A DNA stretch of 41,069 bases from Gemmiger sp. (GCA_963626175.1 CAVFWY010000002.1:1-41069), one strand, 5' to 3'; positions 3,272 through 16,486 are shown, numbered from the stretch's first letter. Numbers and translations are program-made. Notes: generated by a model from the sequence alone, not told the origin.

Positions 3272-3291
3272 CTTGAAGAGAAGGAGTGCCG

Positions 3292-6200
3292 ATGCGGAAA
3301 CTGCTGTGCTTTGCCCTTGCCCTCGCGGCGGTCTGGTGCGTCCGTGCCGATGAGGAGATCACCTGCGAGCGATTCCCCGATGCGGACGCCGTCGTGGTGG
3401 ACGAACGCGAGTCGGTCGCCTACAACCCGGACGGGACGTATGCGAGCGAGAGCGAATCGTGGACGAAGGTGCTCACCGAACGCGGTCGCCGCGAGGAGCG
3501 CGTGATTTCCCTCGGCTACAACGCCCGCTACGGAAAGGCGGAGATCCTTTCGCTCGGTGTTGTCGATACGAACGGCGTGGAGCGCACCGTCGATTTCGGC
3601 GCGACGACGAAGGAGACGACGGACAATTCGTCGATGAGCGCGAACATCGTCGATCCGCTCGACCGCAAGATTACCTGTACGATTCCTGGGCTGAAGGTCG
3701 GCGAGACCGTTCATCTCAAGACGCGGCGACGCACGGTGAAAAGCCGCATCCAGGACCAGTGGAGCGATCTTTCGGTGATGGAGTGGACTTACCCGATTCT
3801 GCGGAGCGTCTATGAGGTCAAGGCGCCTGCGGCGCGTCCGATACGCTCGAAGGCGATTCGGCATTCCCTCGGGAACGTTGTCGAGGAGGTGCGCCCGCTT
3901 GACGACGGCTCGACGCTCTACGTCTACACGGCGACGAATTCGCCGCGTATGTTCCCCGAACCGGACATGCCGCCGCAATGGACGCAGGTTCAGAACGTGC
4001 GGCTTTCGACGGCGGCGGACTGGCGCGAAATCTCCCGGTGGTACTGGAATCTCTGTGCGCCGCGCCTCGCCTGCACGACGGAAGCGATGACGAACAAGGT
4101 GAACGAAATCGGCCGCGACATCCGCGCGCTCTTCAAGTTCGTCTCGCAGGAAGTTCGCTACATGGGGCTGACGATGGAGGACGATTCGCCGGGCTATGCG
4201 CCGCACGACGTGAACGTCACCTTCGACAACCGCTACGGGGTCTGCCGCGACAAGGCCGGGCTTCTCGTCGCCATGCTCCGCATCGCCGGGTTCAAGGCGT
4301 TCCCCGTGCTCATCAACGTCGGCGCGAAGATGGATCCCGACGTGCCGCAGCCCTACTTCAACCACGCCATCGTCGCCGTCGAGGAGGAGCGTCCGGGTGC
4401 GGATGGCGAGCGTTCATACATCCTGATGGATCCGACGAACGAGAACACGAAGGATCTCTTCCCCGCCTATCTTTGCGCACGGAGTTACCTCGTGGCGCGT
4501 CCCGACGGCGAGGGGTTGCGCACGTCTCCCGTGCCGTTGTCGGAAGGGAACGCGGCGAACGTCGTCTCGGCGGGCAGACTCGCGAAGGATGGTTCGATCG
4601 TCCTGGAAAGCACGATTGACTTCTTCGGCATCAGCGACACGGCCTACCGTGGCTCGCTCGTCAGGCGAACCCCGGAACTGCGCAAGGCGTTCTTCGAGCG
4701 CATCGTGCAGTCCGCCGCGCCGGGTGCGGAACTCCTGAAGTGCGAAATCGAGCCGGAAGACCTGCGCGACACCGAAAAGCCGCTGAAAGTGCGTCTGCTC
4801 GCCCGCTTTCCGGAGATGATTCTTCGCGGGCAGACTGAAGATACGCTGAACCTGCCGATGATTTCCGACTCCATCGATCTCGTCGGACGGCTCTTGTCGG
4901 ATAACGCCCTCCTGGAAAAGAGGACGTATCCGCTCGTGCTCGACACGACGGCGCAGACGGCCGAGACGCTCGTGCTGAACGTGGGGGATGCGCTCGGCGA
5001 AGTGAAGAAACTGCCCGACGACTTTTCCGTCACGGGTGCGTTCAGTTGTCGGCGCACGATGACGCTGACGAACGGCGTCTTGAAGGCGGAGCGCGTGACG
5101 GCTTTGAATGCGGTCGAGATTTCCCCGGAGGAATACCTCGACTTGCGCGAACGGATGAAGGCCGCCGAGGCGGCGGCGCGAAAGCAGCCGATCTTCCATT
5201 CGGACGTCGTGAAGGGGGCGAATGTCCACGTCCTTTATGATGCGAGTGAAGTTGACGTCGCGTCCGACGCGGCGTGGACGGTGACGAACGAGATGGTGAA
5301 GCAAGTGCTGACCTATCAGGGCAAGAAGAGTTCGGCGGAACTCAACTTCGCCTACAACCCGACGTGGAAGAACGTCGAAGTCCTTTCGGCGACCGTGTCG
5401 AATGCGAACGGGCGGGTTTACGCGGTGAAGCCGAGCGAGATGAACGTGATGGACTGCGGGTGGGCGAGTGCCGCGCCGCGCTATCCGGCGAGCCGTTTGC
5501 TCGTCGTGAATCTTCCGTCCGTCGAGATTGGCAGCGTCATTTCGGTGAAGACGGCGACGACAGTGACGAACGCCCCCGTGTCGTTCTACGCATCCTACGG
5601 CTTCGATTCCTACCAGCCGACCGAGCGCAAGGTTGTGCGCGTGAACGACTGGCACAGGGAGGTCGTGCATCCGCCGCGTCTGCCGGACGAGCCGATGCAG
5701 CCTGTCGGTTCGCTGTGGCGGGATGTCGTCGTCATTTCGTCCAATGACTTCGCCCGTGCGGCGCGGCAGTTGCGCCCGGCGGTTGAGGTTTCGCCCGTTC
5801 GCGGCGGCGAGGGATTGCCGGACTTCGCGAAGATGTCCGCCGTCGAGATCCGCAAGTGGTTGCACAGGGCGGTGCGCATCGCAGGTCCGGGGCTTTACGA
5901 AGTCCCGATTGCCGACCAGTTGACGCGTCCCGAAGTCGTCCTGAAGGAGCGGTATGCGACGCGGCTCGACTACGTGCGGACGCTGTGTGCGCTTCTGCGG
6001 GGGGCGGGATACGAGGCGGATGTCGTTTTCGCCGCGAACAATGTCAAGTCGCCCGAGGCGATCCGCCGCCGCGACAAGTTCGAGAAGCCGAACGTCCGCG
6101 CATTCGCGTCCGCGCTGTGCCGCGTTCGCGAGCGCACGGGCGGATTCCTTTTCTTCGGCGGAGAAACGCGGGAGTTCTTCGTCGGCACGGAAGGGGAGTA

Positions 6201-6951
6201 TTGTCCGCTCGGTGCGACCTCGTTCGCCGGAAGCGACTACTTCGACCCGTCCGATGGATCGTTCGGCACGGTGACGAGTCCTTCCGACTACTTGCCGCGA
6301 ACGGAAGAGCGGCTCAATCTCGCCGTGCGGGAAAACGGAGCCGTCGATATGGAGGTGAAGACTCTGATCTGGGGTCCCGGCGTCGCGGCGTTCCGCCGTC
6401 GGCACACGGAGATTCTCCCCGAAGACCGCGACCGCTATCATCAGTCTTTGCTCGGCGGCATTGCGAAGGCGGCGACCGCGACGAGCGATCTCGCGGCGGA
6501 CGTGGAGGGCTATCCCGCCAGTCTTGCGTTCTCGTGCTTCGTGCCGGACTATGCAACGGTCGAGGGGGATACGATCAGCCTGACGCTGGAAAGCCTCGCG
6601 GACGGGCTGTTCCCGCTCACGGGCTCGACGCGGGAAACGCCGCTCGGCATTTCGGCGGAAGATGCGTCCGTGACGGAAGTCCGCGTCGTCTTCCCGAAGG
6701 GCTATACGGAAGTGGAGCATCTCCCGAAGCCGTTCCGCTTCCGGAGCCCGTCCGATTTGTCCGTCTGGTATGAGAGCGAGGTTTCGTCTGCCGTGAACGG
6801 GGATGGGCTGCTGGAGGTCGTCATCCGCCGAACGACTCTGCCGCGCCCGCAGTCGATCCTCGACGCGACCTGTTTCCAGTTGCTGAAGGACTGGAATCGG
6901 ATCGAAAGCGGCCGTCCCAACTGCACGATCAGCGTGCGCCGAGGGCGGTGA
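3292..6951 (+). CDS. Secreted DUF3857 / transglutaminase-like / DUF3858 protein, internally duplicated
   Basis: GAAGGAG lies 6 nt before the ATG at 3292; a GTG at 3286 is an alternative start. Signal peptide MRKLLCFALALAAVWCVRA. The first module has an intact transglutaminase-core triad (GVCRDKAG, FNHAIVAV, LMDPT). A second DUF3857-like module begins near aa 640, followed by a degenerate core (LDYVRTLCALLRGAGYEADVV). Confidence 0.75.
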   Translation: MRKLLCFALALAAVWCVRADEEITCERFPDADAVVVDERESVAYNPDGTYASESESWTKVLTERGRREERVISLGYNARYGKAEILSLGVVDTNGVERTVDFGATTKETTDNSSMSANIVDPLDRKITCTIPGLKVGETVHLKTRRRTVKSRIQDQWSDLSVMEWTYPILRSVYEVKAPAARPIRSKAIRHSLGNVVEEVRPLDDGSTLYVYTATNSPRMFPEPDMPPQWTQVQNVRLSTAADWREISRWYWNLCAPRLACTTEAMTNKVNEIGRDIRALFKFVSQEVRYMGLTMEDDSPGYAPHDVNVTFDNRYGVCRDKAGLLVAMLRIAGFKAFPVLINVGAKMDPDVPQPYFNHAIVAVEEERPGADGERSYILMDPTNENTKDLFPAYLCARSYLVARPDGEGLRTSPVPLSEGNAANVVSAGRLAKDGSIVLESTIDFFGISDTAYRGSLVRRTPELRKAFFERIVQSAAPGAELLKCEIEPEDLRDTEKPLKVRLLARFPEMILRGQTEDTLNLPMISDSIDLVGRLLSDNALLEKRTYPLVLDTTAQTAETLVLNVGDALGEVKKLPDDFSVTGAFSCRRTMTLTNGVLKAERVTALNAVEISPEEYLDLRERMKAAEAAARKQPIFHSDVVKGANVHVLYDASEVDVASDAAWTVTNEMVKQVLTYQGKKSSAELNFAYNPTWKNVEVLSATVSNANGRVYAVKPSEMNVMDCGWASAAPRYPASRLLVVNLPSVEIGSVISVKTATTVTNAPVSFYASYGFDSYQPTERKVVRVNDWHREVVHPPRLPDEPMQPVGSLWRDVVVISSNDFARAARQLRPAVEVSPVRGGEGLPDFAKMSAVEIRKWLHRAVRIAGPGLYEVPIADQLTRPEVVLKERYATRLDYVRTLCALLRGAGYEADVVFAANNVKSPEAIRRRDKFEKPNVRAFASALCRVRERTGGFLFFGGETREFFVGTEGEYCPLGATSFAGSDYFDPSDGSFGTVTSPSDYLPRTEERLNLAVRENGAVDMEVKTLIWGPGVAAFRRRHTEILPEDRDRYHQSLLGGIAKAATATSDLAADVEGYPASLAFSCFVPDYATVEGDTISLTLESLADGLFPLTGSTRETPLGISAEDASVTEVRVVFPKGYTEVEHLPKPFRFRSPSDLSVWYESEVSSAVNGDGLLEVVIRRTTLPRPQSILDATCFQLLKDWNRIESGRPNCTISVRRGR

Positions 6952-6982
6952 AATCGGCGGGTGGGAACCCTGTGCCCAAAAA

Positions 6983-6991
6983 TGGTATAAT
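6983..6991 (+). promoter_or_regulatory. Candidate extended -10 promoter (TGGTATAAT) immediately upstream of the ABC ATPase gene
   Basis: Perfect TGnTATAAT. The hexamer ends 8 nt before the ATG at 7000, and no Shine-Dalgarno sequence lies in between. Confidence 0.35.
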
Positions 6992-6999
6992 ATCCAATA

Positions 7000-7710
7000 A
7001 TGCTTGAGGTTAGGAATATCGCTTTCACCTATCGCCGGAAACCGGTTCTGAAGGATGTCTCGTTCGTCGTTTCGCCGGGTGAGACGGTCTGCATTCTCGG
7101 TGCGAATGGCGCGGGGAAGACGACTCTTCTGCGGGTGTTGGCGACGCTTTCGATTCCGGATTCGGGCCGAGTGCTTTCGGATGGGCGCGATGCGTTCGCG
7201 GAATCGCTCGACTATCGCCACAAGTTGGGCTATTTGCCCGAGGCGATTGGCCTTTACGACGACATGACCGTGAAGGAATATCTCATTTATCGCGCCAACC
7301 TGAAGGGCGAACCGCGAAAGCGGATACGCCGTCGAGTGGACGAGGCGGTGGAGGCCTGTCGGATCGCTGACCTCCTGCGTGCGCCGATTCGCGACCTGTC
7401 GATGGGCTACCGCAAGCGCGTGGCATTGGCGGATGCGCTTCTGCTGCGTCCGCGTGTCCTGCTTCTGGACGATTTTCTCGCGGGGCTTGACTACGGCATG
7501 CGGAAGGCCGCAGGAGAGATCCTCTCGAATGCGGCGGCGTTTTCGTCCGTCATCGTAACGGGGCATGAGCCGGAGGATCTCGCCCCGTGGACGACGCGGT
7601 TTCTCGTTCTCAAGGACGGTGTGATTTCCGCGACGATTGATGCGGCGGGGATTGACGCGGCGACGCTGAAGAGCCGTCTCGACGAGGCGTACGGGAGGGC
7701 TTCGGCATGA
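7000..7710 (+). CDS. ABC transporter ATP-binding protein, GldA-like, with a non-canonical Walker B region
   Basis: Walker A is GANGAGKTT, and LGYLPE occupies the Q-loop position. The signature is LSMGYRKR (GldA-type LSKGYRQR). Walker B is VLLLDDF, with Asp where the catalytic Glu normally sits. D-loop AGLD and H-loop TGHE are present. Confidence 0.88.
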   Translation: MLEVRNIAFTYRRKPVLKDVSFVVSPGETVCILGANGAGKTTLLRVLATLSIPDSGRVLSDGRDAFAESLDYRHKLGYLPEAIGLYDDMTVKEYLIYRANLKGEPRKRIRRRVDEAVEACRIADLLRAPIRDLSMGYRKRVALADALLLRPRVLLLDDFLAGLDYGMRKAAGEILSNAAAFSSVIVTGHEPEDLAPWTTRFLVLKDGVISATIDAAGIDAATLKSRLDEAYGRASA

Positions 7711-9776
7711 GTCCGCTGCGCGTAACGCTTCGGCGGACGATCGGCCGCGCCCGCAACCTCTATCTGACGGCATTCTCGATGGGGGGCTTTCTCTTCGCCG
7801 CGGCGGTGCTGTTCGCGTTCGCGCTGGATGCGGCGGAGGGAAGTTCGTTCGCAGTCCAGGCGGTATGGGCGTCGTCCGTTTCGCCGCTTCTGCCGTTCCT
7901 TGCGGCGTTTCTCGGCATGGACGCATGGAGCGACGAGCGGAAGTCCGGGCGGATAGATTTTCTGCTGACGGCTCCCGTGCGGGAGATGGATCTCGTGCTT
8001 GGCAAGTTTCTTGGCGTGTGGCTGCTCTGTTCCCTGGCGACGGTTGCCTTCCTGCTCTTTACGGTAGCCTTTCTCGCGTTCTTCGCGCCGGCGGTTCTGT
8101 CGGATGTCTCGGTTTCGCGTTTTGCGCCCGCCCTGCTGATTCTGTTGCTGCAGGGGGCGTTGTGGAGCGGCGTGGTGGTGGCGGCGAGTGCATTCTGCCG
8201 GCATCCCGCCGTCGCGGCGGTCTTGTCGCTCTTCGTGCTCGTGGCGATTCCGCGCGGCGGATGGGCGGCGCTTCTCGCGTGGGCCCCGCAGGGGCGCACG
8301 GCGTTCGGGGAGATGCCGCTAGACGCGCAGACCGTGGATTTCGCGTCCGGCGTGATTTCGACGGGGGCAATCGCGTCCTATCTCGTGGGGACGTTGGCGG
8401 TTCTGTTCGTCGCCTCCCGTCTTGTCGCGGCGTATCGGCTTGTCGGACGCGGCGCGGCGCGGCCGAGGCTTTCCGCCGCGTTCGCATGCGCCCTTGCGCT
8501 CGCGGTTGCGGGGCTGGCGGCGACGCTGGCGGTTCGCGCGGGCGTGTCGTTCGACGTTCCCGTATCGGGCGAAGCGCGCTTCTCGGCTCGCACGCGCGGC
8601 ATTCTGGCGGATGCGCGGGGAACGGTTTCGGTTGACTGTCTTCTGCCGCGGAGCGACCCGAGGTTTCGCGCCGTGGGGCAGTTTCTGCGTGCCTTGCGCC
8701 GCGAGGCCGGTCTGACGGGCGGCGTTCGCCTCGACTTGCGCTTCGTGGATCCCCGATGGGACGTCGGCGCGGCCGCGCGATTGGTCCGGTCGGGTGCGGG
8801 CGAGGAGGGGCTTGTCTTTTCGCGCGGGCAGAGGTCGATTTCGCTGTCGATTGCCGAAGGGTTGGACGAACGCAACTGCGCGTCGGCGATTCTGCGGCTC
8901 ACCGTGCCGCCTCAGCGACGGAACGTCTACTGGACGCTCGGCCATGGGGAAATCGCCTTTGACGGCTACGATTCGTGGGGCATGAGCGACATCGTGCGCG
9001 AACTCGCCCGAGACGGCTACGCCAACGTCGCCCTTGACCTGATGAAGGTCGATCAGATTCCGATTGACTGCGCCCTCGTCATCGTCGCGGGGGCGAAGGG
9101 CGAATTCTCCCGCGTGGAGATCGAGCGTGTGGATGCCTACCTGCGACAGGGCGGACGCCTTCTCGCATTGCTTGGCCTCGGGGAGAACGCTGGCATTGCA
9201 TCGCTTCTCCCGTCATGGGGGCTTCGGGCTGTGCGCCGTCCGCTGGGCGATGAAGTCCAGACGCTTTCCGGGGAGGACGTGATCGCCTCCGTTCGCGGCG
9301 ATCACGACATCACCTTGCCGCTTCGCAATCAGCGTCTTGTGCTCGAGTCGCCGCTTGTTCTTCTGCCGTCTTCGGCGGCGAATGGCGCGGTGGGGGCGGA
9401 TCGCATCGAGTTCTATCCGCTGGCGAACGCCGGTCAGTCCGTCGTGGCGGCGATTGTCGAGAAGGGGGTCGGCACGGGGGCGGATCTCGCGGTTCGGCCG
9501 ACGCGCATCGTGGCGGTCGGCGATTCGGGGTTTGCGATGAACGGGCAACTCGCGGCACGGGCGAACGCCAACCGCGATTTCTTCCTGAACTGCGTCTCCT
9601 ATCTCTCTGGCACGGATGCGCTCGTGTCGGGCGGGTCTGACGCCGGGGTGCTGACGACGGGGTTGGATCGCTCGATGCGGCGGCGCTTTGCCATCGCCTT
9701 TGCCGCAGGCCCGTCGCTGGCGGTCTTCTGCTGTCTAATCCTGTGGGCGAAGATTCGGCGGAGGAGGCGCAAATGA
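7707..9776 (+). CDS. Fused ABC-2 permease (GldF-like) and GldG-like periplasmic-domain protein
   Basis: Its ATG overlaps the upstream stop (ATGA). The N-terminal ~250 aa contain multiple hydrophobic helices. These are followed by a large soluble domain (VYWTLGHGE, ALVIVAGAK, IVAVGDSGF) and a C-terminal TM anchor ending KIRRRRRK. Confidence 0.72.
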   Translation: MSPLRVTLRRTIGRARNLYLTAFSMGGFLFAAAVLFAFALDAAEGSSFAVQAVWASSVSPLLPFLAAFLGMDAWSDERKSGRIDFLLTAPVREMDLVLGKFLGVWLLCSLATVAFLLFTVAFLAFFAPAVLSDVSVSRFAPALLILLLQGALWSGVVVAASAFCRHPAVAAVLSLFVLVAIPRGGWAALLAWAPQGRTAFGEMPLDAQTVDFASGVISTGAIASYLVGTLAVLFVASRLVAAYRLVGRGAARPRLSAAFACALALAVAGLAATLAVRAGVSFDVPVSGEARFSARTRGILADARGTVSVDCLLPRSDPRFRAVGQFLRALRREAGLTGGVRLDLRFVDPRWDVGAAARLVRSGAGEEGLVFSRGQRSISLSIAEGLDERNCASAILRLTVPPQRRNVYWTLGHGEIAFDGYDSWGMSDIVRELARDGYANVALDLMKVDQIPIDCALVIVAGAKGEFSRVEIERVDAYLRQGGRLLALLGLGENAGIASLLPSWGLRAVRRPLGDEVQTLSGEDVIASVRGDHDITLPLRNQRLVLESPLVLLPSSAANGAVGADRIEFYPLANAGQSVVAAIVEKGVGTGADLAVRPTRIVAVGDSGFAMNGQLAARANANRDFFLNCVSYLSGTDALVSGGSDAGVLTTGLDRSMRRRFAIAFAAGPSLAVFCCLILWAKIRRRRRK

Positions 9777-11482
9777 GCAATCGTCGGTCGATTCTCTGGA
9801 TGCTGCTGACGCTCGCGCTGTTGGTCGCGGCGCACGTTCTGCTCAATATTCGCGGCACGCGGGCGAACGCACGGCTACTTCGACATTCGGTGCTTGTCCG
9901 GGGGGCGGACCGGGCGACGGGCTTCCTCCTTGCGCGGCAGGGCGAACCGACGCTGGAAATCGCGAGGGACGCGAACGGCTGGCGAATCGTCGCGCCGTTC
10001 GCATCGTCGGCGAACGCATCCCGCGTGATGCAACTCGCGGACGCCCTCGCCTTTCGCCCGGTTCTCGACTCTCAGTCGGACTTTGAACTCCTCAAACTCG
10101 GTCGGACGCGGGCGGACTTCGGATTGAACGTGCCGCGCCTGTCGGTTTCGGCGCTGGGAGAAGGCGTGACGAACGCCGTCGTTTCGTTCGGGTCTCTGAC
10201 GCCGACGAAAGACGGCGTGTATGTCGCGGTGTCGGACTCCGATCTCGTTTACGTCGTCCCGACGAATGTCTTCGCCTGTGCGGACTTGCCCGCGAGCGGA
10301 TTCCGCGACCAGCGGCTCTTCCTTTCCGATGCGGCGGTTGCGTCCGTCGACGTGCGTCGGGGGTCGGGACTGTTCCTGCGGCTCGTGCGGACGGGCGAGA
10401 CCTGGCAGATGGAAGAGCCGCGGAAGGCCGTGGCTTCGGCGCAGCGGGTCTCGCTTTTGCTGTCGGCGTTGCGCACGACGAAAGCCGACGAATTTTTCTG
10501 GCCGGTGGGAGCGACGAACGAACCGTCGCGCACGACGTCCGCCCTGCTCGCCGGATACGGGCTCGATCCCGAAAGCGCGGTGACGATCACCTTGCGCGGA
10601 CGGGATGGCACGGATCGCTCGATTTCGCTCGGCAAGGAGGCCGGGCAGGGTCGCGTCTACGCGCTCGTGCAGAATGGCGGGGCGGTGGTTTCGCTCGACG
10701 CAGGGCTGAAGGACTTCGCACGGACGGAGGCGGAGGCCTTTGTCGATTCGCGGCTCTTCCCCTACGAGGCGAAGGCGATAACGACGGTTTCGATGGTGGA
10801 CGGGGCGACGACCTGTCTGCTCGCCCGCACGCCGAACGGACGGTGGCGCATGGATGCGCCCGTCGCCGCGTTTGCCGATCAGTCGGCGGTGGAGGAGTTC
10901 CTGGCGAAGTTGCTGCAGTTGGAGGCGAAGGATGCCGACGAGAATGGCGTGAAGGTGAGCGTCGCGGCAAATGCGGAGCCTGTCTCCGTTTCGCGCGCCC
11001 GTCTCTTTGCGGATCTTCGTCTGGAGGATCTGCGTTCGAAGAATGTGCTGCGCGTGGCGGCGGATGACGTCAGGCGCATCGTCTCGACGGCGAACGGCGA
11101 AAAGCCGACTGCCATCGTCTGGAATTCCGACAGCCGCGCCTGGAACATCGAAACGTCCCCTCGTACGGGTGGAATTGACGAAAAGGCGGTCGCCGCGCTG
11201 CTGGCCGAGTTGAATCCGCTCAGGGCCGCGTCCGTTGCCAAGTTGAAAGTCTCGCCGACCGAACTCGGCGCCTATGGCCTTGAAACGCCGCGGCTGACGG
11301 TATCCGTCGATCTGCGCCAGGAGGGCGTGGTGCGGCGGAATGTCCTGATCGGCGACCGTGTTGAGGGTGGGTATTATGCGGCGTCCGGTTCGCTTGACGC
11401 CGTCTTCATTCTTCCGGCAAAGACGGTCGAACGGCTCTCGGCTTCTCTCGTGGACGCGGCGGAAACCCCGCCTCTCCCCTAA
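9773..11482 (+). CDS. DUF4340-like membrane-anchored repeat protein
   Basis: The ATG at 9773 overlaps the upstream stop (ATGA); the ORF-track start at 9743 is less likely. One N-terminal TM is present (ILWMLLTLALLVAAHVLL). There are four internal repeats of the W-x-[IM]-x-x-P...V...LL..L type: GWRIVAPF..RVMQLADAL, TWQMEEPR..RVSLLLSAL, RWRMDAPV..VEEFLAKLL and AWNIETSP..VAALLAEL. Confidence 0.68.
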   Translation: MSNRRSILWMLLTLALLVAAHVLLNIRGTRANARLLRHSVLVRGADRATGFLLARQGEPTLEIARDANGWRIVAPFASSANASRVMQLADALAFRPVLDSQSDFELLKLGRTRADFGLNVPRLSVSALGEGVTNAVVSFGSLTPTKDGVYVAVSDSDLVYVVPTNVFACADLPASGFRDQRLFLSDAAVASVDVRRGSGLFLRLVRTGETWQMEEPRKAVASAQRVSLLLSALRTTKADEFFWPVGATNEPSRTTSALLAGYGLDPESAVTITLRGRDGTDRSISLGKEAGQGRVYALVQNGGAVVSLDAGLKDFARTEAEAFVDSRLFPYEAKAITTVSMVDGATTCLLARTPNGRWRMDAPVAAFADQSAVEEFLAKLLQLEAKDADENGVKVSVAANAEPVSVSRARLFADLRLEDLRSKNVLRVAADDVRRIVSTANGEKPTAIVWNSDSRAWNIETSPRTGGIDEKAVAALLAELNPLRAASVAKLKVSPTELGAYGLETPRLTVSVDLRQEGVVRRNVLIGDRVEGGYYAASGSLDAVFILPAKTVERLSASLVDAAETPPLP

Positions 11483-11508
11483 CTGAACGATTTGAAAGGA
11501 CTGAACGT

Positions 11509-12234
11509 ATGTTGATAGCAAATTCTCTCGTTGACGGATTTCTCGCCTCGAACCTGACCGGGCAGGGAATCGTGTGGGCGCAGTTGGTCGGCTCGGTGCT
11601 GATGGTCGCCGTCATCATCGGCAAGTGGAAGGAACTGAATTTCATCAGCATGGCGGTAAGGCGGTTCACGCGAGACTTCTCGTCCTGCCGCGACGTGCTC
11701 GAATACTACCTCAACCGCCGTCCGAGCAAGGAGGCGACGGGGCTGGTCGGCATCTACGCGAAGTCGTGCGAACGTCTGCTCAAGCTCCTCACGCCGGATG
11801 TCCGCGCCCTGCTCGCCGGACGCGGTGCTTCGGGCGACGGCGCCGCCGCGCTGACGGCGCGGGAGATTGAACTTGTGAAGGGGACGTGCGAACACGCGCT
11901 GGATGAGGAGGAGTTGCGCGTCGAGCGCGGCATGGGCGTGATTGCGACGGTCGTCGCGCTTTCCCCGATGCTGGGGCTCCTCGGCACGGTGTGGGGCGTG
12001 CTGGACGCCTTCGCCGAGATGGGCACGGCGGGTTCGGCGAACCTCGCGACAATCGCGCCATCCATCTCCGCCGCGCTCGTCACGACGGTTGTCGGCCTTC
12101 TGATTGCGATCCCCGGCGTCGTCTGCTTCAACCTCATGAACGGGGCGATCCGCAACATCACCGCCGACATGGAGGGTTTCGCGGACGAATTGATCGGGCG
12201 CATCGCCTGTGAGTTCCAGGGAAGGATGGACTGA
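11509..12234 (+). CDS. exbB: MotA/TolQ/ExbB-family proton channel
   Basis: 241 aa with the C-terminal signature LSPMLGLLGTVWGVLDAF...IAPSISAALVTTVVGLLIAIPGVVCFN. Confidence 0.85.
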   Translation: MLIANSLVDGFLASNLTGQGIVWAQLVGSVLMVAVIIGKWKELNFISMAVRRFTRDFSSCRDVLEYYLNRRPSKEATGLVGIYAKSCERLLKLLTPDVRALLAGRGASGDGAAALTAREIELVKGTCEHALDEEELRVERGMGVIATVVALSPMLGLLGTVWGVLDAFAEMGTAGSANLATIAPSISAALVTTVVGLLIAIPGVVCFNLMNGAIRNITADMEGFADELIGRIACEFQGRMD

Positions 12235-12235
12235 G

Positions 12236-12646
12236 ATGTCGCGACGGAGGCGGATGCGCGGCGAAAAGCCGAAGGCGGCGGTCGACATGACCTCGCTCAT
12301 TGACCTGACGTTCCTCTTGCTCGTCACCTTCATCGTCACCCTTCCCGCACTGGAGCAGGGCGTGTCGATCATGCTGCCGCAGGCGAAGACCGACACCCTG
12401 CCCTCGAAGGACAACAAGGCCAACACGATTACGGTCGACTCGACGAACCGCATCTTTTTCAACGGCAACCCGACGACGCTGGCGGATCTCGAGGAGACGC
12501 TGAAGGCGAAGGTCGCGGAAGACCCTGACGTCCCCGTGCTCGTGCGCGGCGACGAACGGCTCGACTACGGGAGTGTGATGAACGTCGTCAAGGTCGTCTA
12601 CCGGTGCAAGGTGCGCCGCATGGCGCTCGTTACGGTTGACAGGTAA
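12236..12646 (+). CDS. exbD: ExbD/TolR-family biopolymer transport protein
   Basis: The ATG lies 1 nt after the exbB stop. It has the MTSLIDLTFLLLVTFIV transmembrane segment and a periplasmic domain (VLVRGDERLDYGSVMNVV). The ORF-track start at 12209 would overlap exbB. Confidence 0.85.
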   Translation: MSRRRRMRGEKPKAAVDMTSLIDLTFLLLVTFIVTLPALEQGVSIMLPQAKTDTLPSKDNKANTITVDSTNRIFFNGNPTTLADLEETLKAKVAEDPDVPVLVRGDERLDYGSVMNVVKVVYRCKVRRMALVTVDR

Positions 12647-12662
12647 AGGGGAGGCGCGAGAC

Positions 12663-13526
12663 TTGTTTGCCGACGAAGAGAGAAAAGCCCCGACCGTGCT
12701 GGGTGTTCGCAGTCTGACGATTGCGCTCGCCCTTCACGCCGCGCTTTTCCTCGTCGCCTACTTTGGTGCAGTCGTCGTCCGCAAGCCGAAGGAGACGGCG
12801 ATTCCAATCGACATGACGGTCGTCGTGCGCGAGAACCTCGACGGGAACGAGAACGAGCCGCCGCCGCTGAAGCCGTCGGAACCCGAGCCGCCCCCGCCGA
12901 AGCCCGAACCGAAACCTGAACCAAAACCCGAGCCGAAGCCCGAACCGCCGCCCGTCGTCGAGCCGAAGGTCGATGCGGTCGTGAAAGTCCCCGAAAAGTC
13001 GAAGCCGAAGAAGCCCGAGAAGCCGAAGAAAACGGCGGAACAGCTTCGCAAGGAAAAGGAGGAGCGCCAGAAGAAGCGGCTGGAGGAAATCCGCAATCGT
13101 GGCAAGGTCGTGAACAGGCCCGCCCAGAAGCCGGTCGAACGCCAGCCGAACGGACGCACGGGAAAGCAGACGCTGAGCAAGGCCGAGATCGAACGGATGC
13201 TGGCACTTGGGGCGCGGCCGGGCGCGGTCGAGCAGTTGCCGTCGAGCGAATACCAGCGGTGCGTGTCGCTGATACAGTCCGCGTATTACGCGAAGTGGGA
13301 TCGCCCGCCGTGGACGGACACGCTTCGCGAGATGCATCTCTCCATCCAGTTGGGCGCGGGCGGGCGCATCCTCGGTTACAGGCTCGTGCAGAGTTCGGGC
13401 GATCCGAAGGCGGATGCGACCGTGCGGATGGCGGCTTCGCTCGTAAAGTCAATCGCCGGGCTTTCGCCCGAATTCATCCGTCAGAACAAGACGGTGCTCA
13501 TCCGCTTCAAGGTGACTCCCCAGTAA
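12663..13526 (+). CDS. TonB/TolA-like energy-transducer protein
   Basis: It has an N-terminal TM (LTIALALHAALFLVAYFG), a Pro-rich spacer (EPEPPPPKPEPKPEPKPEPKPEPPP), a Lys-rich helix and a TonB_C-like C-terminus. The start is uncertain: TTG 12663 lies 8 nt after GGGAGG, with alternatives TTG 12636 and GTG 12696. Confidence 0.7.
   Translation: MFADEERKAPTVLGVRSLTIALALHAALFLVAYFGAVVVRKPKETAIPIDMTVVVRENLDGNENEPPPLKPSEPEPPPPKPEPKPEPKPEPKPEPPPVVEPKVDAVVKVPEKSKPKKPEKPKKTAEQLRKEKEERQKKRLEEIRNRGKVVNRPAQKPVERQPNGRTGKQTLSKAEIERMLALGARPGAVEQLPSSEYQRCVSLIQSAYYAKWDRPPWTDTLREMHLSIQLGAGGRILGYRLVQSSGDPKADATVRMAASLVKSIAGLSPEFIRQNKTVLIRFKVTPQ
12879..12953 (+). repeat. In-frame Pro-Glu-Pro-Lys tandem codon repeat inside the TonB-like gene
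   Basis: 25 codons read EPEPPPPKPEPKPEPKPEPKPEPPP. The 12-nt CCN-GAR-CCN-AAR unit is repeated about four times with synonymous variation. Confidence 0.8.
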
Positions 13527-13541
13527 GAGGAGAGAGGGACG

Positions 13542-15278
13542 ATGCTCGGTTTGATTGTGGCAAAGGTCTTGTTCGCGGCGATTCCCCTGACGGGCGTCGT
13601 CGGGGACGGCTTGCGTGCGCGGGCGTTCTTCGACGCGAACAATGTGAAGGTGGGCGATCCGCTCGTGCTGACGCTGGACTTCCTTGGCGCGGCAGATTTC
13701 GCCGCGCTTCATCCGCCCGCCCTCGCGAAGGTCGTGGACAGGGCGGACTGGAAACTGGATGATGCGAGCGCGAAGACCGAGACCTATCGCGACGCGCGGC
13801 GGCTCACCTACCGGGTGCGTCCGATGCGGGAAGGGGTGATCTGGTTTCCCGAACTCGAGTTCGCGTATGTCGGTCCGGACGGCAAGTCGCATCGCGTCCG
13901 CTCGAACGCCATTCCCGTCCACGCGAAGCCCGGCGCGGCGGTTGAGGTGGCGGAACTCCGCAAGGACGAAGTGACGATGCCCCAGCCCGACGCGCTCATC
14001 ACCGACTTCAGAACGGACGACGCGGATCTCGACTTCGCGTGGCGCAAGGCCTGTGCGCAGCCGACCGCGAATGCGTTCGCGGCGTTCGACTTCCCGGCGG
14101 CGAAACTCAACGAAGCGCGGTGCGCCACGCTCGCCGGGGACTGGAAGCGGGCGCTCGCCATCTACTCGCGCCTCGAATGGCGCATCGGTCAGACCCCCGC
14201 CGTCGAACGCGGCATTCTGGCCGCGCTGGCGGTGAAGTCCGCGAATCCGCTCGTCGAACTGCCCGTCTGGCGGCAGGTCGGCCGTCCCGTGCTGAAATAC
14301 GGATGGATGGGGCGCGTTTTGATTGTCGCGGGCGGCGGGCTTGCGCTCGTGCTTCTCTTCTGGCTCGCCGGTCGGTGCGTGCGCCGTCTCGCCTGCATCG
14401 CCCTCGCTTTCGCCGCGTTCAGTTGTTCGGCGCAGAACGCGCCGAACGACCCGTTTCAGGAAATCCGCCGCGCACAGCAGCAAATGGACGAGATGGTGTC
14501 CCGCGCATTCGGCGAGGACGGCTTTTCCTGCGCACGGGTGGCGGCGCAGCCGCGTCCGGACATGCGGGCGGCGGTTTCGCTGAGCAGGGACGATTTGCAG
14601 GTCGGCGACGAGTTCGACTACGTTCTTTCGCTGGAAGTCCCGAAGGGGCTTTCGGTCGGTCAGGTGAACATTGCCCCGGTGAACGCGGGCGAGTTCACGG
14701 TCGTTGGCAGGGTGGCGAACCTGATTGACGGGAAGTCCGCGAACCCGTCCAATGTCGTGCGGCGGTTTTCCCTGCCCGTGCGATACGACCGCCCCTATCG
14801 AGGAAAGGTGAGTTTTCAGTTGACCGTGCCCTATCAGGTGGCGAATTCGCGTCAGGGCGGCTTTTTCAGCTTCTTTGCGTCCACCCTCCTGAATGCGCGA
14901 GTCCGGACGCCGCCGCTTGAGGTGAACGTGAAGCCCCTGCCGAAGGAGGGGCAGCCCGCCGATTTCAGCGGCATCGTCGCCACGCGCCTCACCCTGACGG
15001 AAACGCCCGACTTGCGGCGTGTCGAGACGAATGATGTGATTTGCATCACCTATCGCATGGATTACGACGGTTATCTGCCGACGGACTGGATGCTGCCGGG
15101 GGCGGCATTCGAATTGGGACGCGAGGGTGGAGCGGTCGAATGGCGGCGGTTTTTCGTGGCGGACGGCGCGGCGGCGACACCGAAGGGCGAAGTCGTCTGG
15201 TATGACGCAAAAACTCGTTCCTACCGCCGCGAATCGTTCGGTGGCACGGCGATTGCCTACATACCGACTTCCTTGTAG
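13542..15278 (+). CDS. BatD-like (oxygen-tolerance family) membrane protein
   Basis: AGAGGAGAGAGGGA lies upstream of the ATG, and a signal-like N-terminus is present. BatD-type Ig-like modules are seen (VGDPLVLTLDF, YRVRPMREGVIWFPELEF), as is the characteristic VKPLPKEGQPADFSGIV motif. Two adjacent hydrophobic helices sit mid-protein. The family call is from motif memory only. Confidence 0.45.
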   Translation: MLGLIVAKVLFAAIPLTGVVGDGLRARAFFDANNVKVGDPLVLTLDFLGAADFAALHPPALAKVVDRADWKLDDASAKTETYRDARRLTYRVRPMREGVIWFPELEFAYVGPDGKSHRVRSNAIPVHAKPGAAVEVAELRKDEVTMPQPDALITDFRTDDADLDFAWRKACAQPTANAFAAFDFPAAKLNEARCATLAGDWKRALAIYSRLEWRIGQTPAVERGILAALAVKSANPLVELPVWRQVGRPVLKYGWMGRVLIVAGGGLALVLLFWLAGRCVRRLACIALAFAAFSCSAQNAPNDPFQEIRRAQQQMDEMVSRAFGEDGFSCARVAAQPRPDMRAAVSLSRDDLQVGDEFDYVLSLEVPKGLSVGQVNIAPVNAGEFTVVGRVANLIDGKSANPSNVVRRFSLPVRYDRPYRGKVSFQLTVPYQVANSRQGGFFSFFASTLLNARVRTPPLEVNVKPLPKEGQPADFSGIVATRLTLTETPDLRRVETNDVICITYRMDYDGYLPTDWMLPGAAFELGREGGAVEWRRFFVADGAAATPKGEVVWYDAKTRSYRRESFGGTAIAYIPTSL

Positions 15279-15319: not shown

Positions 15320-16486
15320 TCAGCGGGTTGTGCGGAATGTTGTGGGGGATTTTCCAAAGACGCTGGTGAAGATATTGCAGAAATACTGCGGCGTATGGAA
15401 TCCCGTGCGTTTGGCAACATCCGCAATGGAGAGATCGGTCTTGTTGAGCAGCCGTTTGGCCTCATCGAGTGCAACGCGGCGGATTTCCGCTTGGACGGAT
15501 GTTCCCAGGTTTGCGCGGAACGCGGAATTGACGTTTGTGTGGGAGCGACCAAGTGCCGCGTAGACATCCTGTGCGGAAAGATGGTGGTTGATGTTTCGCC
15601 GAATGTAGATGAGCGCATCGGCGAGCCACGGCGGGTCGAGCGGAAAGATATTGGTTGAGGATCGCTCAATCAGGTCGTTCGGTTTGACAATCTTCGGTTC
15701 GAACGGAATTGAATCCCCTTCGAGCGCGTGCGAGAGCGATTCCGCCGCGACGAATCCGAGCGTGGTCGCGTCCGGATCGATGGAGGAAAGCGTCGGGGTG
15801 ACGAAGTTGCAGATGAGCGTGTCGTTATCTACGCCCAGTACGGCGACTTCCTGTGGCACGGCAATACCGGCAACCTCACAGGCCATGATGACTTGCAGTC
15901 CCCGCAAATCGTTCGCACAGAAGAGTGCGATGGGCTTCGGCAGGGATTTCAGCCAGCGGATAAGTTGTTTGGAGTCGGGGGCGGAATCGAGCTGTTCGCC
16001 GCGCACGGCATTGGAGGCGAAGGTGTGCGCCACGGATGCCGCGCTTGTGTAGACTTCAACGGCGTGTCGGTGATGTTCAAGGTAGCGGATGAAGGAATCT
16101 CTGCGGAAGTCCGAGAAGGGTTGACCATCATAACCGCAGAATGCGAAGCGCGTGAAATGATGCTCGATAAAGTGCCGCGCCGCGAGTTTGCCGATCGCGG
16201 CATTATCCTGCCAAATCCCACGCACGGCTCGTGCATCATAGCGAGTACGGCAGGCGAGATCCACAACGACCCCTTGCGCACTCGCGAGAAGACTTTCGAG
16301 CAGGGGGTCGGGTATGTGGGTGATGAAGCCATCAAAGTCCGTCGGCGTGGCGGACTTCTTGAAATCGGCGGGTTTGAGCAGGGTGAGCGACCAGTCGGGC
16401 TGGGTTTGGGCGAAGGTGCAGATGCCCTCGCAGATATTGCGCCCCCACGAGCGATCCCATTCAATGCAGATTCCGATTCGTTTCAT
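15320..16486 (-). CDS. XylR-type transcriptional regulator (periplasmic-binding-protein-like sugar domain plus AraC-family HTH)
   Basis: 388 aa. The N-terminal ~270 aa are LacI/PBP type I-like without an N-terminal HTH. The C-terminus is a double AraC HTH (LSIADVAKRTGFHTPQYFCNIFTSVFGKSPTTFR). The gene is divergent from the glycoside hydrolase cluster. Confidence 0.8.
   Translation of the reverse strand: MKRIGICIEWDRSWGRNICEGICTFAQTQPDWSLTLLKPADFKKSATPTDFDGFITHIPDPLLESLLASAQGVVVDLACRTRYDARAVRGIWQDNAAIGKLAARHFIEHHFTRFAFCGYDGQPFSDFRRDSFIRYLEHHRHAVEVYTSAASVAHTFASNAVRGEQLDSAPDSKQLIRWLKSLPKPIALFCANDLRGLQVIMACEVAGIAVPQEVAVLGVDNDTLICNFVTPTLSSIDPDATTLGFVAAESLSHALEGDSIPFEPKIVKPNDLIERSSTNIFPLDPPWLADALIYIRRNINHHLSAQDVYAALGRSHTNVNSAFRANLGTSVQAEIRRVALDEAKRLLNKTDLSIADVAKRTGFHTPQYFCNIFTSVFGKSPTTFRTTR

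Follow-up and report, generated by a model that had tools for sequence, protein, structure and literature searches.

A stretch of 41,069 nt from Gemmiger sp. (CAVFWY010000002.1:1-41069; hereafter the window, numbered over its full length) carries seven consecutive genes on its + strand, at 7000-15278, which combine an ATP-binding cassette (ABC) system with a motor of the ExbB/ExbD type. Does this string encode a single trans-envelope machine that draws on both ATP and the proton motive force (pmf), as the initial annotation had suggested, or are two separate systems joined end to end? Our analysis points to the second answer. We consider it probable that the string is a head-to-tail fusion, at the level of the operon, of two autonomous envelope modules within a single clade of gut Kiritimatiellae. 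The first, module A (7000-11482), is a triad of ABC ATPase, permease/GldG and DUF4340 genes, and the second, module B (11509-15278), a quartet of ExbB-, ExbD-, TonB- and BatD-like genes.

The gene content of the string was established by open reading frame (ORF) calling, Pfam searches and topology prediction, which bore out the earlier description of seven packed + strand genes and their domains. G+C content across the region is about 62-67%. Module A opens with the ATPase of an ABC transporter (7000-7710, +; PF00005 ABC_tran, 101.6 bits). It is followed by a GldF/NosY-like ABC-2 permease fused to a GldG-type ABC_transp_aux/GIFT periplasmic domain (7707-9776, +), which matches PF12679 ABC2_membrane_2 at residues 49-180 (43.7 bits), PF09822 ABC_transp_aux at residues 405-506 (44.6 bits, gathering score 34.7) and, weakly, PF23355 IFT52_GIFT. 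Hydropathy predicts several transmembrane (TM) helices in the permease, a large periplasmic GldG-type domain and a C-terminal TM anchor (661-679). Its match to NosY (7o0y) was the only PDB sequence match among the searches with string proteins and was marginal (E=0.0085). The third gene encodes a membrane-anchored periplasmic protein with four DUF4340 repeats (9773-11482, +; PF14238, 151.9 bits over four stretches, well past the gathering score of 25). An N-terminal TM helix is predicted by hydropathy, and the AlphaFold2 model (predicted local distance difference test score, pLDDT, 85.9) consists of a TM helix and four alpha/beta repeats. Comparison of this model with the PDB using Foldseek returned just weak sliding-clamp-like matches (TM-score <=0.2) and no informative neighbour. 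We take the DUF4340 protein to be a probable accessory subunit of the ABC module. GldG-type ABC systems and DUF4340 proteins are widespread and uncharacterised.

Module B begins with a proton-channel subunit of the MotA/TolQ/ExbB family (exbB; 11509-12234, +; PF01618 MotA_ExbB, 102.7 bits, three TM helices) and an ExbD/TolR-family subunit in which the TM aspartate is present (exbD; 12236-12646, +; PF02472 ExbD, 89.1 bits). The third gene (tonB; 12663-13526, +) starts with a TTG codon at 12663 and encodes a putative force transducer of the TonB/TolA type (PF13103 TonB_2, 24.6 bits; gathering score 22), in which a TM helix with a conserved histidine is followed by a spacer of (PEPK)n and K/E-rich sequence and, at the C-terminus, by the TonB_2 domain. 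Last in the string is a gene for a BatD-like inner-membrane protein (13542-15278, +), whose match to PF13584 BatD (21.4 bits) falls slightly short of the gathering score of 24.1.

Spacing within the string is tight. ATGA overlaps at 7707 and 9773 were read from the sequence, 26 nt (11483-11508) containing an AAGGA Shine-Dalgarno-like motif for exbB separate the DUF4340 gene from exbB, and the remaining gaps are 1 nt (exbB-exbD), 16 nt up to the TTG at 12663 (exbD-tonB) and 15 nt up to 13542 (tonB to the BatD-like gene). Direct reading thus confirmed every junction described earlier, namely the overlaps and gaps of 26, 1, about 16 and 15 nt. In relatives, the ABC/permease and the permease/DUF4340 junctions are each -4 nt in 11/11 loci. 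Within module B, the median gap across relatives is 1 nt for exbB/exbD (n=48), 7 nt for exbD/tonB and 11 nt for tonB/BatD-like, the last two genes overlapping in 16/48. The DUF4340/exbB gap is 20-31 nt in all ten string-bearing loci and never an overlap. Because the same junctions recur in relatives, the packing of the string exceeds chance.

Conservation among relatives separates the two modules. Searches with the DUF4340 and BatD-like proteins returned homologues that are named Kiritimatiellae, which assigns the source organism to this group, and we inspected the loci encoding relatives of the DUF4340 protein. At 79%, 60% and 51% identity, the order DUF4340, ExbB, ExbD, TonB-like and BatD-like (about 576-580 residues) is kept and the downstream flanks differ among the three loci. 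At 46-47% identity, the ABC, permease/GldG and DUF4340 genes with their 4-nt overlaps are followed by glutamine synthetase or SAICAR synthase. The BatD-like protein has more than 600 relatives. A scan anchored on it and restricted to one genome per species yielded 56 loci, all from metagenome-assembled genomes (MAGs) of gut or rumen Kiritimatiellae, and the six-frame ORFs of all loci were searched with the window proteins. The full seven-gene string was present in 6 of the 56; 37 carried the quartet and lacked any triad gene as far upstream as sequence was available, five had a partial or interrupted arrangement and eight had the BatD-like gene alone; altogether, the BatD-like gene adjoins exbB-exbD-tonB in 43/56. 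Three further loci (L007, L132 and L133) also have the quartet alone, and the triad stands alone in L001-L003. Further, none of 63 metagenome loci anchored on DUF4340, 35 of which extend 2 kb or more downstream, gave an ExbB, ExbD, TonB or BatD-like match, and the ATPase gene of relatives is always accompanied by the permease/GldG and DUF4340 genes. The triad and the quartet are separately conserved units, and the BatD-like gene belongs to the motor module as its conserved fourth member.

Where the two modules do meet, they do so as a discrete block with a single origin. In a neighbour-joining tree built from the BatD-like protein, the string-bearing loci group together as a single clade (178/200 bootstraps), within which the BatD-like proteins are 51-97% identical, so that the fusion arose once, in one gut Kiritimatiellae clade. 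Seven relatives share nucleotide homology with the window from about 6978-7046 (6982/6983 in four of them) to about 14288-15230 where the contig permits. In an eighth locus, L010, the homology sets in at a contig edge in the middle of the block and extends to 15259. Beyond the block (about 6982 to about 15230-15260) the flanks are unrelated, even in the locus that is about 90% identical. When neighbouring ORFs were clustered, every other gene recurred in at most 11 of 59 loci, and an aminotransferase and an aldose epimerase were the most frequent. The initial annotation had raised the prospect that the synteny might be missing outside this genome; it is conserved in relatives.

Several individual loci deviate from these patterns. 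TonB-like and BatD-like genes occur together without exbB or exbD at L046:8844-11896, about 8 kb are inserted between exbD and the TonB-like gene at L064 (1-1205; 9090-10354), and about 1.5 kb separates the TonB-like from the BatD-like gene at L062:6154-11677. Four contigs with loci of the Kiritimatiellae type, L010, L011, L022 and L060, bear the names Faecalibacterium sp. CAG:74, Barnesiella intestinihominis, Anaerovoracaceae and Muribaculaceae, respectively, probably because the source MAGs were mis-binned or mislabelled.

The start of module A is marked by an extended -10 promoter element, TGGTATAAT, at 6983-6991 on the + strand, 8 nt before the ABC ATG. In all eight aligned string loci TGGTATAATA is invariant, lying 8-10 nt ahead of the ABC ATG in six of them, and it is the sole conserved upstream sequence, the remaining DNA upstream of the string being unalignable. 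Across the class, 33 of the 46 triad loci carry TGnTAnAAT at 16-19 nt ahead of the ABC ATG, with no Shine-Dalgarno sequence, and in two more it lies farther upstream, at 39 nt (L022) and 65 nt (L006), where the ABC start codons may have been mis-called. The position of TGnTATAAT so close to the ABC ATG implies that the triad mRNA of Kiritimatiellae would be leaderless or near-leaderless. The exbB gene is preceded instead by an AAGGA or GGAG Shine-Dalgarno-like motif. None of the string loci has a TGnTAnAAT in the 120 nt ahead of exbB, and of all 47 exbB loci only two, both quartet-only, have the motif in that interval. Motif and terminator scans detected neither a promoter-like nor a terminator-like signal in the junction at 11483-11508, and co-transcription of both modules in the fused clade is plausible for this reason. 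A generic sigma-70 promoter and terminator scan performed no better than shuffled sequence and was uninformative.

A second adjacency of the triad and a BatD-like gene was found at L008:4794-11752, in a lineage present on several long metagenomic contigs. Here, the ABC, permease/GldG and DUF4340 genes are followed by an opposite-strand uracil-DNA glycosylase gene and then by the BatD-like gene, with no exbB, exbD or tonB motor genes within 10 kb. In 200/200 bootstraps the BatD-like protein of this locus clusters with those of L017 and L063, well away from the string clade. Neither of these two loci has any flank in common with L008, and P0211, whose BatD-like protein is 72% identical to that of L008, has a plain quartet. 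Since the L008 protein groups apart from the string clade and its relatives have other contexts, the triad came beside a BatD-like gene twice, independently. By our rough estimate, random rearrangement would give two such events among about 25 contexts with a chance of about 1e-3 to 1e-2. These two juxtapositions are a weak hint that the BatD-like protein may link the quartet to the ABC module.

We characterized the BatD-like protein further. Its AlphaFold2 model (pLDDT 80.3) comprises an N-terminal immunoglobulin (Ig)-like domain, a tetratricopeptide repeat (TPR)-like helical region and a membrane segment, followed by two more Ig-like domains at the C-terminus, and only generic Ig-fold matches were obtained when it was compared with the PDB using Foldseek. 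The N-terminal domain is nearly invariant among relatives. In case of the family assignment, the window protein taken alone falls short of the BatD threshold, but some of its orthologues exceed the gathering score of PF13584, and it is only through a profile search of 1.84 billion representatives, which linked the protein to longer BatD+TPR+SH3 proteins that score above it, that it is called BatD-like. These longer proteins are Kiritimatiellae paralogues with an additional N-terminal Ig domain. We know of no biochemistry for BatD. In a literature search linking BatD with ExbB, TolQ, ExbD or TonB, the top-ranked papers did not mention BatD, and a description of the quartet was not found.

Two candidate links between the wider BatD-like family and motors were rejected. 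A TonB-BatD fusion of the 'Rosetta stone' kind was ruled out in the longer relatives, whose extension consists of an Ig-like domain and a signal peptide with no TonB-like region, and the paralogous families of about 800 and about 700 residues do not lie beside motors, having no ExbB, ExbD or TonB neighbours. Paralogues of about 700-830 residues, some with a C-terminal SH3 domain (L129:8621-11391, L130:8639-11502 and L131:8583-11118), are each preceded by a gene for a protein of 121-133 residues, with a 4-nt overlap in two of the three loci. These small proteins share 47-52% mutual identity, are predicted to be coiled-coil proteins with a single TM segment, have no Pfam match and are not ExbD-like.

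The motor of module B carries the conserved residues of its family. Across 46 orthologues of the ExbB-like protein the TM2/TM3 motifs (LGLLGTVWGV and ALVTTVVGL) remain virtually unchanged, SLIDLTFLLL of the ExbD-like protein, including the TM aspartate, is invariant in 47, and the TM histidine and post-TM motif IPIDMTVVVRENLDGNENEPPP of the transducer are conserved in 48. Conservation thus extends over the catalytic and motor residues, and by homology the motor is predicted to be of the MotA/TolQ/ExbB-ExbD/TolR 5:2 type with its residues intact. Model scores lean towards Tol. The ExbB-like protein matched TolQ (TIGR02796) over its full length with 122 bits (cut-off 221) and ExbB (TIGR02797) partially with 79 bits. 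The ExbD-like protein scored 73 bits with TolR (TIGR02801, cut-off 127.3) compared with 44 for the best ExbD model, the ExbB and ExbD scores both lying far below cut-off, and the top model for the TonB-like protein was tolA_full (TIGR02794; 51.1 bits, cut-off 59.45), with tonB_Cterm (TIGR01352) at 24.2 (cut-off 27.1). TolA and TonB are indistinguishable without genomic context (PMC12204202). No TonB-dependent receptor was found among the plausible genes of the window, as the initial annotation had stated, nor as a conserved neighbour in the 59 loci. Likewise, TolB, Pal and CpoB are neither adjacent in the window nor conserved across those loci. Synteny of queC/queE with tol-pal operons has been reported (PMC12204202). 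In our set, queC, an RsmD-like methyltransferase gene and queF come right after the BatD-like gene, at about 120 nt, in L005:7288-8979 and L009:11852-13543, and about 4 kb downstream of it in L004:11244-12935. Kiritimatiella glycovorans has no genes for TonB-dependent polysaccharide uptake (PMC5148204). On these grounds we suggest with low confidence that module B probably serves a Tol-like housekeeping role in envelope maintenance rather than nutrient import.

Taken together, the following picture can be proposed. Module A would be an ABC-2-type complex of the GldA/GldF/GldG kind with its own conserved extended -10 promoter, in which ATP hydrolysis might power either the export of a substrate, an envelope glycoconjugate or a lipid-linked molecule, or mechanical work performed on it in the periplasm. 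Its GldG domain and DUF4340 protein would form the periplasmic part, modelled by analogy on ABC-2 systems such as Wzm/Wzt or NosFY. In module B, a 5:2 motor that belongs to the TolQR/ExbBD family and is driven by protons would be combined with a periplasm-spanning transducer of the TolA/TonB type, and the fourth part of the module, a lineage-specific and often translationally coupled BatD-like Ig/TPR membrane protein, would take the place of TolB/Pal or a receptor. The transducer may deliver pmf-derived force to the BatD-like protein, or the BatD-like protein may scaffold the transducer. In the fused clade, module B has most likely lost its separate 5' sequence and would be transcribed by read-through from the promoter of module A.

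The same observations bear on other explanations of the string. All seven proteins could form one trans-envelope machine for export, surface remodelling or motility, driven by ATP and the pmf and bridged by the BatD-like and/or the DUF4340 protein. We regard this as quite unlikely. The block does keep a single recognisable promoter and a short DUF4340/exbB junction across relatives with BatD-like proteins as little as 51% identical, and the independent juxtaposition in L008, whose nearest relatives L017, L063 and P0211 have other contexts, makes two chance events among some 25 contexts improbable by the rough estimate given above. However, in most lineages the modules are more than 10 kb apart or on separate contigs, translational coupling across the DUF4340/exbB junction is never seen, and the L008 triad has no adjoining motor genes, so that a link there would concern the BatD-like protein only. 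In addition, the window holds no genes for gliding or for type IX secretion (T9SS), and the Gld equivalog thresholds are missed. What stands of the single dual-engine machine proposed earlier is the conservation of the block and a junction free of detectable signals, but not one obligate system, as the modules abut in 6/56 species-level genomes belonging to one clade. A related proposal, in which the BatD-like protein would be an unrecognised output or adaptor of a Tol/Ton-type motor that physically cooperates with the GldG/DUF4340 ABC complex in a dual-energised envelope machine, appears to us to be doubtful to much the same degree. At the other extreme, the adjacency might be a neutral rearrangement that left two transcription units, with exbB driven from an unrecognised promoter within the DUF4340 gene's 3' end. 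Flanks in this group rearrange very frequently, the DUF4340/exbB junction never overlaps and exbB retains its own Shine-Dalgarno-like motif, all as this explanation would have it, but a junction that stayed at 20-31 nt over deep divergence, with no -10-like motif in the 120 nt upstream of exbB in string loci and no terminator-like site, renders it very unlikely.

Module B might also be an ordinary Ton system that energises receptors encoded elsewhere, with the BatD-like protein accessory or co-located and the ABC adjacency incidental. The MotA_ExbB, ExbD and TonB_2 matches exceed their Pfam gathering scores, a proline-rich PEPK spacer is typical of TonB, and in Pontiella, Pfam families of TonB-dependent transporters have been reported close to glycoside hydrolases and sulfatases (bioRxiv 10.1101/2023.06.09.544357). 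Set against this are the higher scores of the TolQ and TolR models relative to ExbB and ExbD, the lack of a receptor gene in the 41-kb window or of one conserved across the 59 loci, and the lack of uptake genes in K. glycovorans. Moreover, the position of the BatD-like gene beside the TonB-like gene in 43/56 loci, often with an overlap, argues for a specific partner and not a passenger, and we judge an ordinary Ton system to be unlikely. Some points weigh against the fusion of two autonomous modules that we favor. The L008 adjacency, although one of two events only, suggests that the modules may not be functionally independent, and a promoter that does not match TGnTAnAAT may lie inside the 3' end of the DUF4340 gene and drive exbB. 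Further, the distinction between Tol and Ton rests on sub-threshold scores of hidden Markov models, with the tolA_full match spanning only the TM helix and the low-complexity linker.

The surroundings of the string were also analyzed. Upstream lies a gene for a secreted protein of 1221 residues with a transglutaminase core and two DUF3857 regions (3286-6951), which the initial annotation had put forward as a possible cargo or partner of the string. This was rejected for want of support from synteny: homology to the closest relative (about 90% nucleotide identity) begins only at 6983 and leaves out the transglutaminase giant. None of the 128 related loci encodes a homologue of the giant, which is thus a strain-variable insertion beside the operon. 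Downstream and convergent to the string is a gene for a hybrid regulator with periplasmic-binding and AraC domains (15320-16486, -), followed by a glycoside-hydrolase (GH) cluster (17208-40857, +) with beta-helix, GH2-like, GH29 fucosidase, GH30, GH27+CE4, metallophosphoesterase and GDSL esterase proteins. This cluster also includes a 2128-residue protein that joins an FAD-oxidoreductase region to a GH2-like region and GH97. Other genes in the window encode DprA, a HAD hydrolase and ThiC, and a tRNA-Glu (UUC) gene (2-76, -) is the only Rfam/ARAGORN match.

The quartet of motor, transducer and BatD-like protein is the most interesting part of the string and the cleaner target, being intact in 43/56 gut and rumen Kiritimatiellae species. 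It bears on the question of how bacteria of the Planctomycetota-Verrucomicrobiota-Chlamydiota (PVC) group that have no canonical Tol-Pal or Ton targets use TolQR/ExbBD-type motors (PMC12204202). If the BatD-like protein did act as an adaptor to the ABC complex, this would be the first functional handle on the GldAFG/DUF4340 family, while the two-module result keeps the claim of a new machine from overstatement. The near-leaderless TGnTATAAT promoter is additionally a useful marker of operon starts in a poorly studied phylum.

How does the string compare with known systems? GldA, GldF and GldG of Flavobacterium are associated with gliding. Module A shares with the F. johnsoniae proteins an ATPase, an ABC-2 permease and a GldG-type PF09822 protein as common building blocks. 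It differs in that permease and GldG domain are fused, the module invariably comes with a DUF4340 subunit, the window genes include no gld, spr or T9SS families and the host belongs to the Kiritimatiellae and not to the Bacteroidota. In the NCBIfam equivalog models, the best match of the ATPase was GldA (TIGR03522) with 137 bits against a cut-off of 402.6 and that of the permease GldF (TIGR03518) with 48 bits against 288.5, whereas the GldG model (TIGR03521) had no match at E<=0.01. The likeness to GldA/F/G noted earlier therefore holds at the level of Pfam similarity but not at that of equivalogs. Judged by gene content and order, the triad appears to be a member of the widespread ABC ATPase/ABC-2 permease/GldG-like (ABC_transp_aux)/DUF4340 cluster and not a demonstrated GldAFG equivalog, and the permease-GldG fusion and near-leaderless TGnTATAAT promoter are features seen here in Kiritimatiellae. 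Only four papers were found to mention DUF4340; a SAR11-clade study that included HIMB59 predicted it to serve there as a subunit of the neighbouring ABC transporter (bioRxiv 10.64898/2025.12.11.693642), and in Verrucomicrobium spinosum the DUF4340 domain of one gene was scored essential (PMC12283558). The triad also resembles NosDFY in having a permease of PF12679 with a NosY match and an ABC-2 pair that would work with a large periplasmic domain, although the NosY match is marginal and NosD beta-helix, NosL and nos context are absent here.

In case of module B, the Tol-Pal system offers the best-scoring motor models and the same order of two motor genes, transducer and periplasmic partner. 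Both also have a housekeeping look, one locus having been returned by the BatD-like scan in each of the 56 species-level genomes. All three equivalog scores are nevertheless below cut-off, and the fourth gene encodes a BatD-like Ig/TPR membrane protein. With Ton systems the module shares Pfam matches to MotA_ExbB, ExbD and TonB_2 that pass, a proline-rich spacer and a TM histidine, but it has no TonB-dependent transporter in the window or as a conserved neighbour and scores lower with ExbB/ExbD than with TolQ/TolR. Bat operons resemble it in the Ig-like N-terminus matching PF13584 and in profile relatives that carry TPR and SH3 as in BatC and BatE. Genes for MoxR, DUF58, vWA BatA/BatB and TPR BatC/BatE are missing, however, from the window and from the neighbour tables of related loci, and the BatD-like gene is here tied to a pmf motor. 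PVC bacteria further possess clusters of the type 'TPR, tolQ, tolR, tolR, vWA transducer', including that of the Kiritimatiellota member Tichowtungia aerotolerans, which has no recognisable TolA/TonB (PMC12204202). Module B differs from these clusters by its TolA/TonB-type C-terminal domain, its BatD-like partner, a single tolR/exbD and the lack of a separate TPR gene, yet the two have in common a TolQR-type motor coupled to a non-canonical, Bat-like periplasmic partner.

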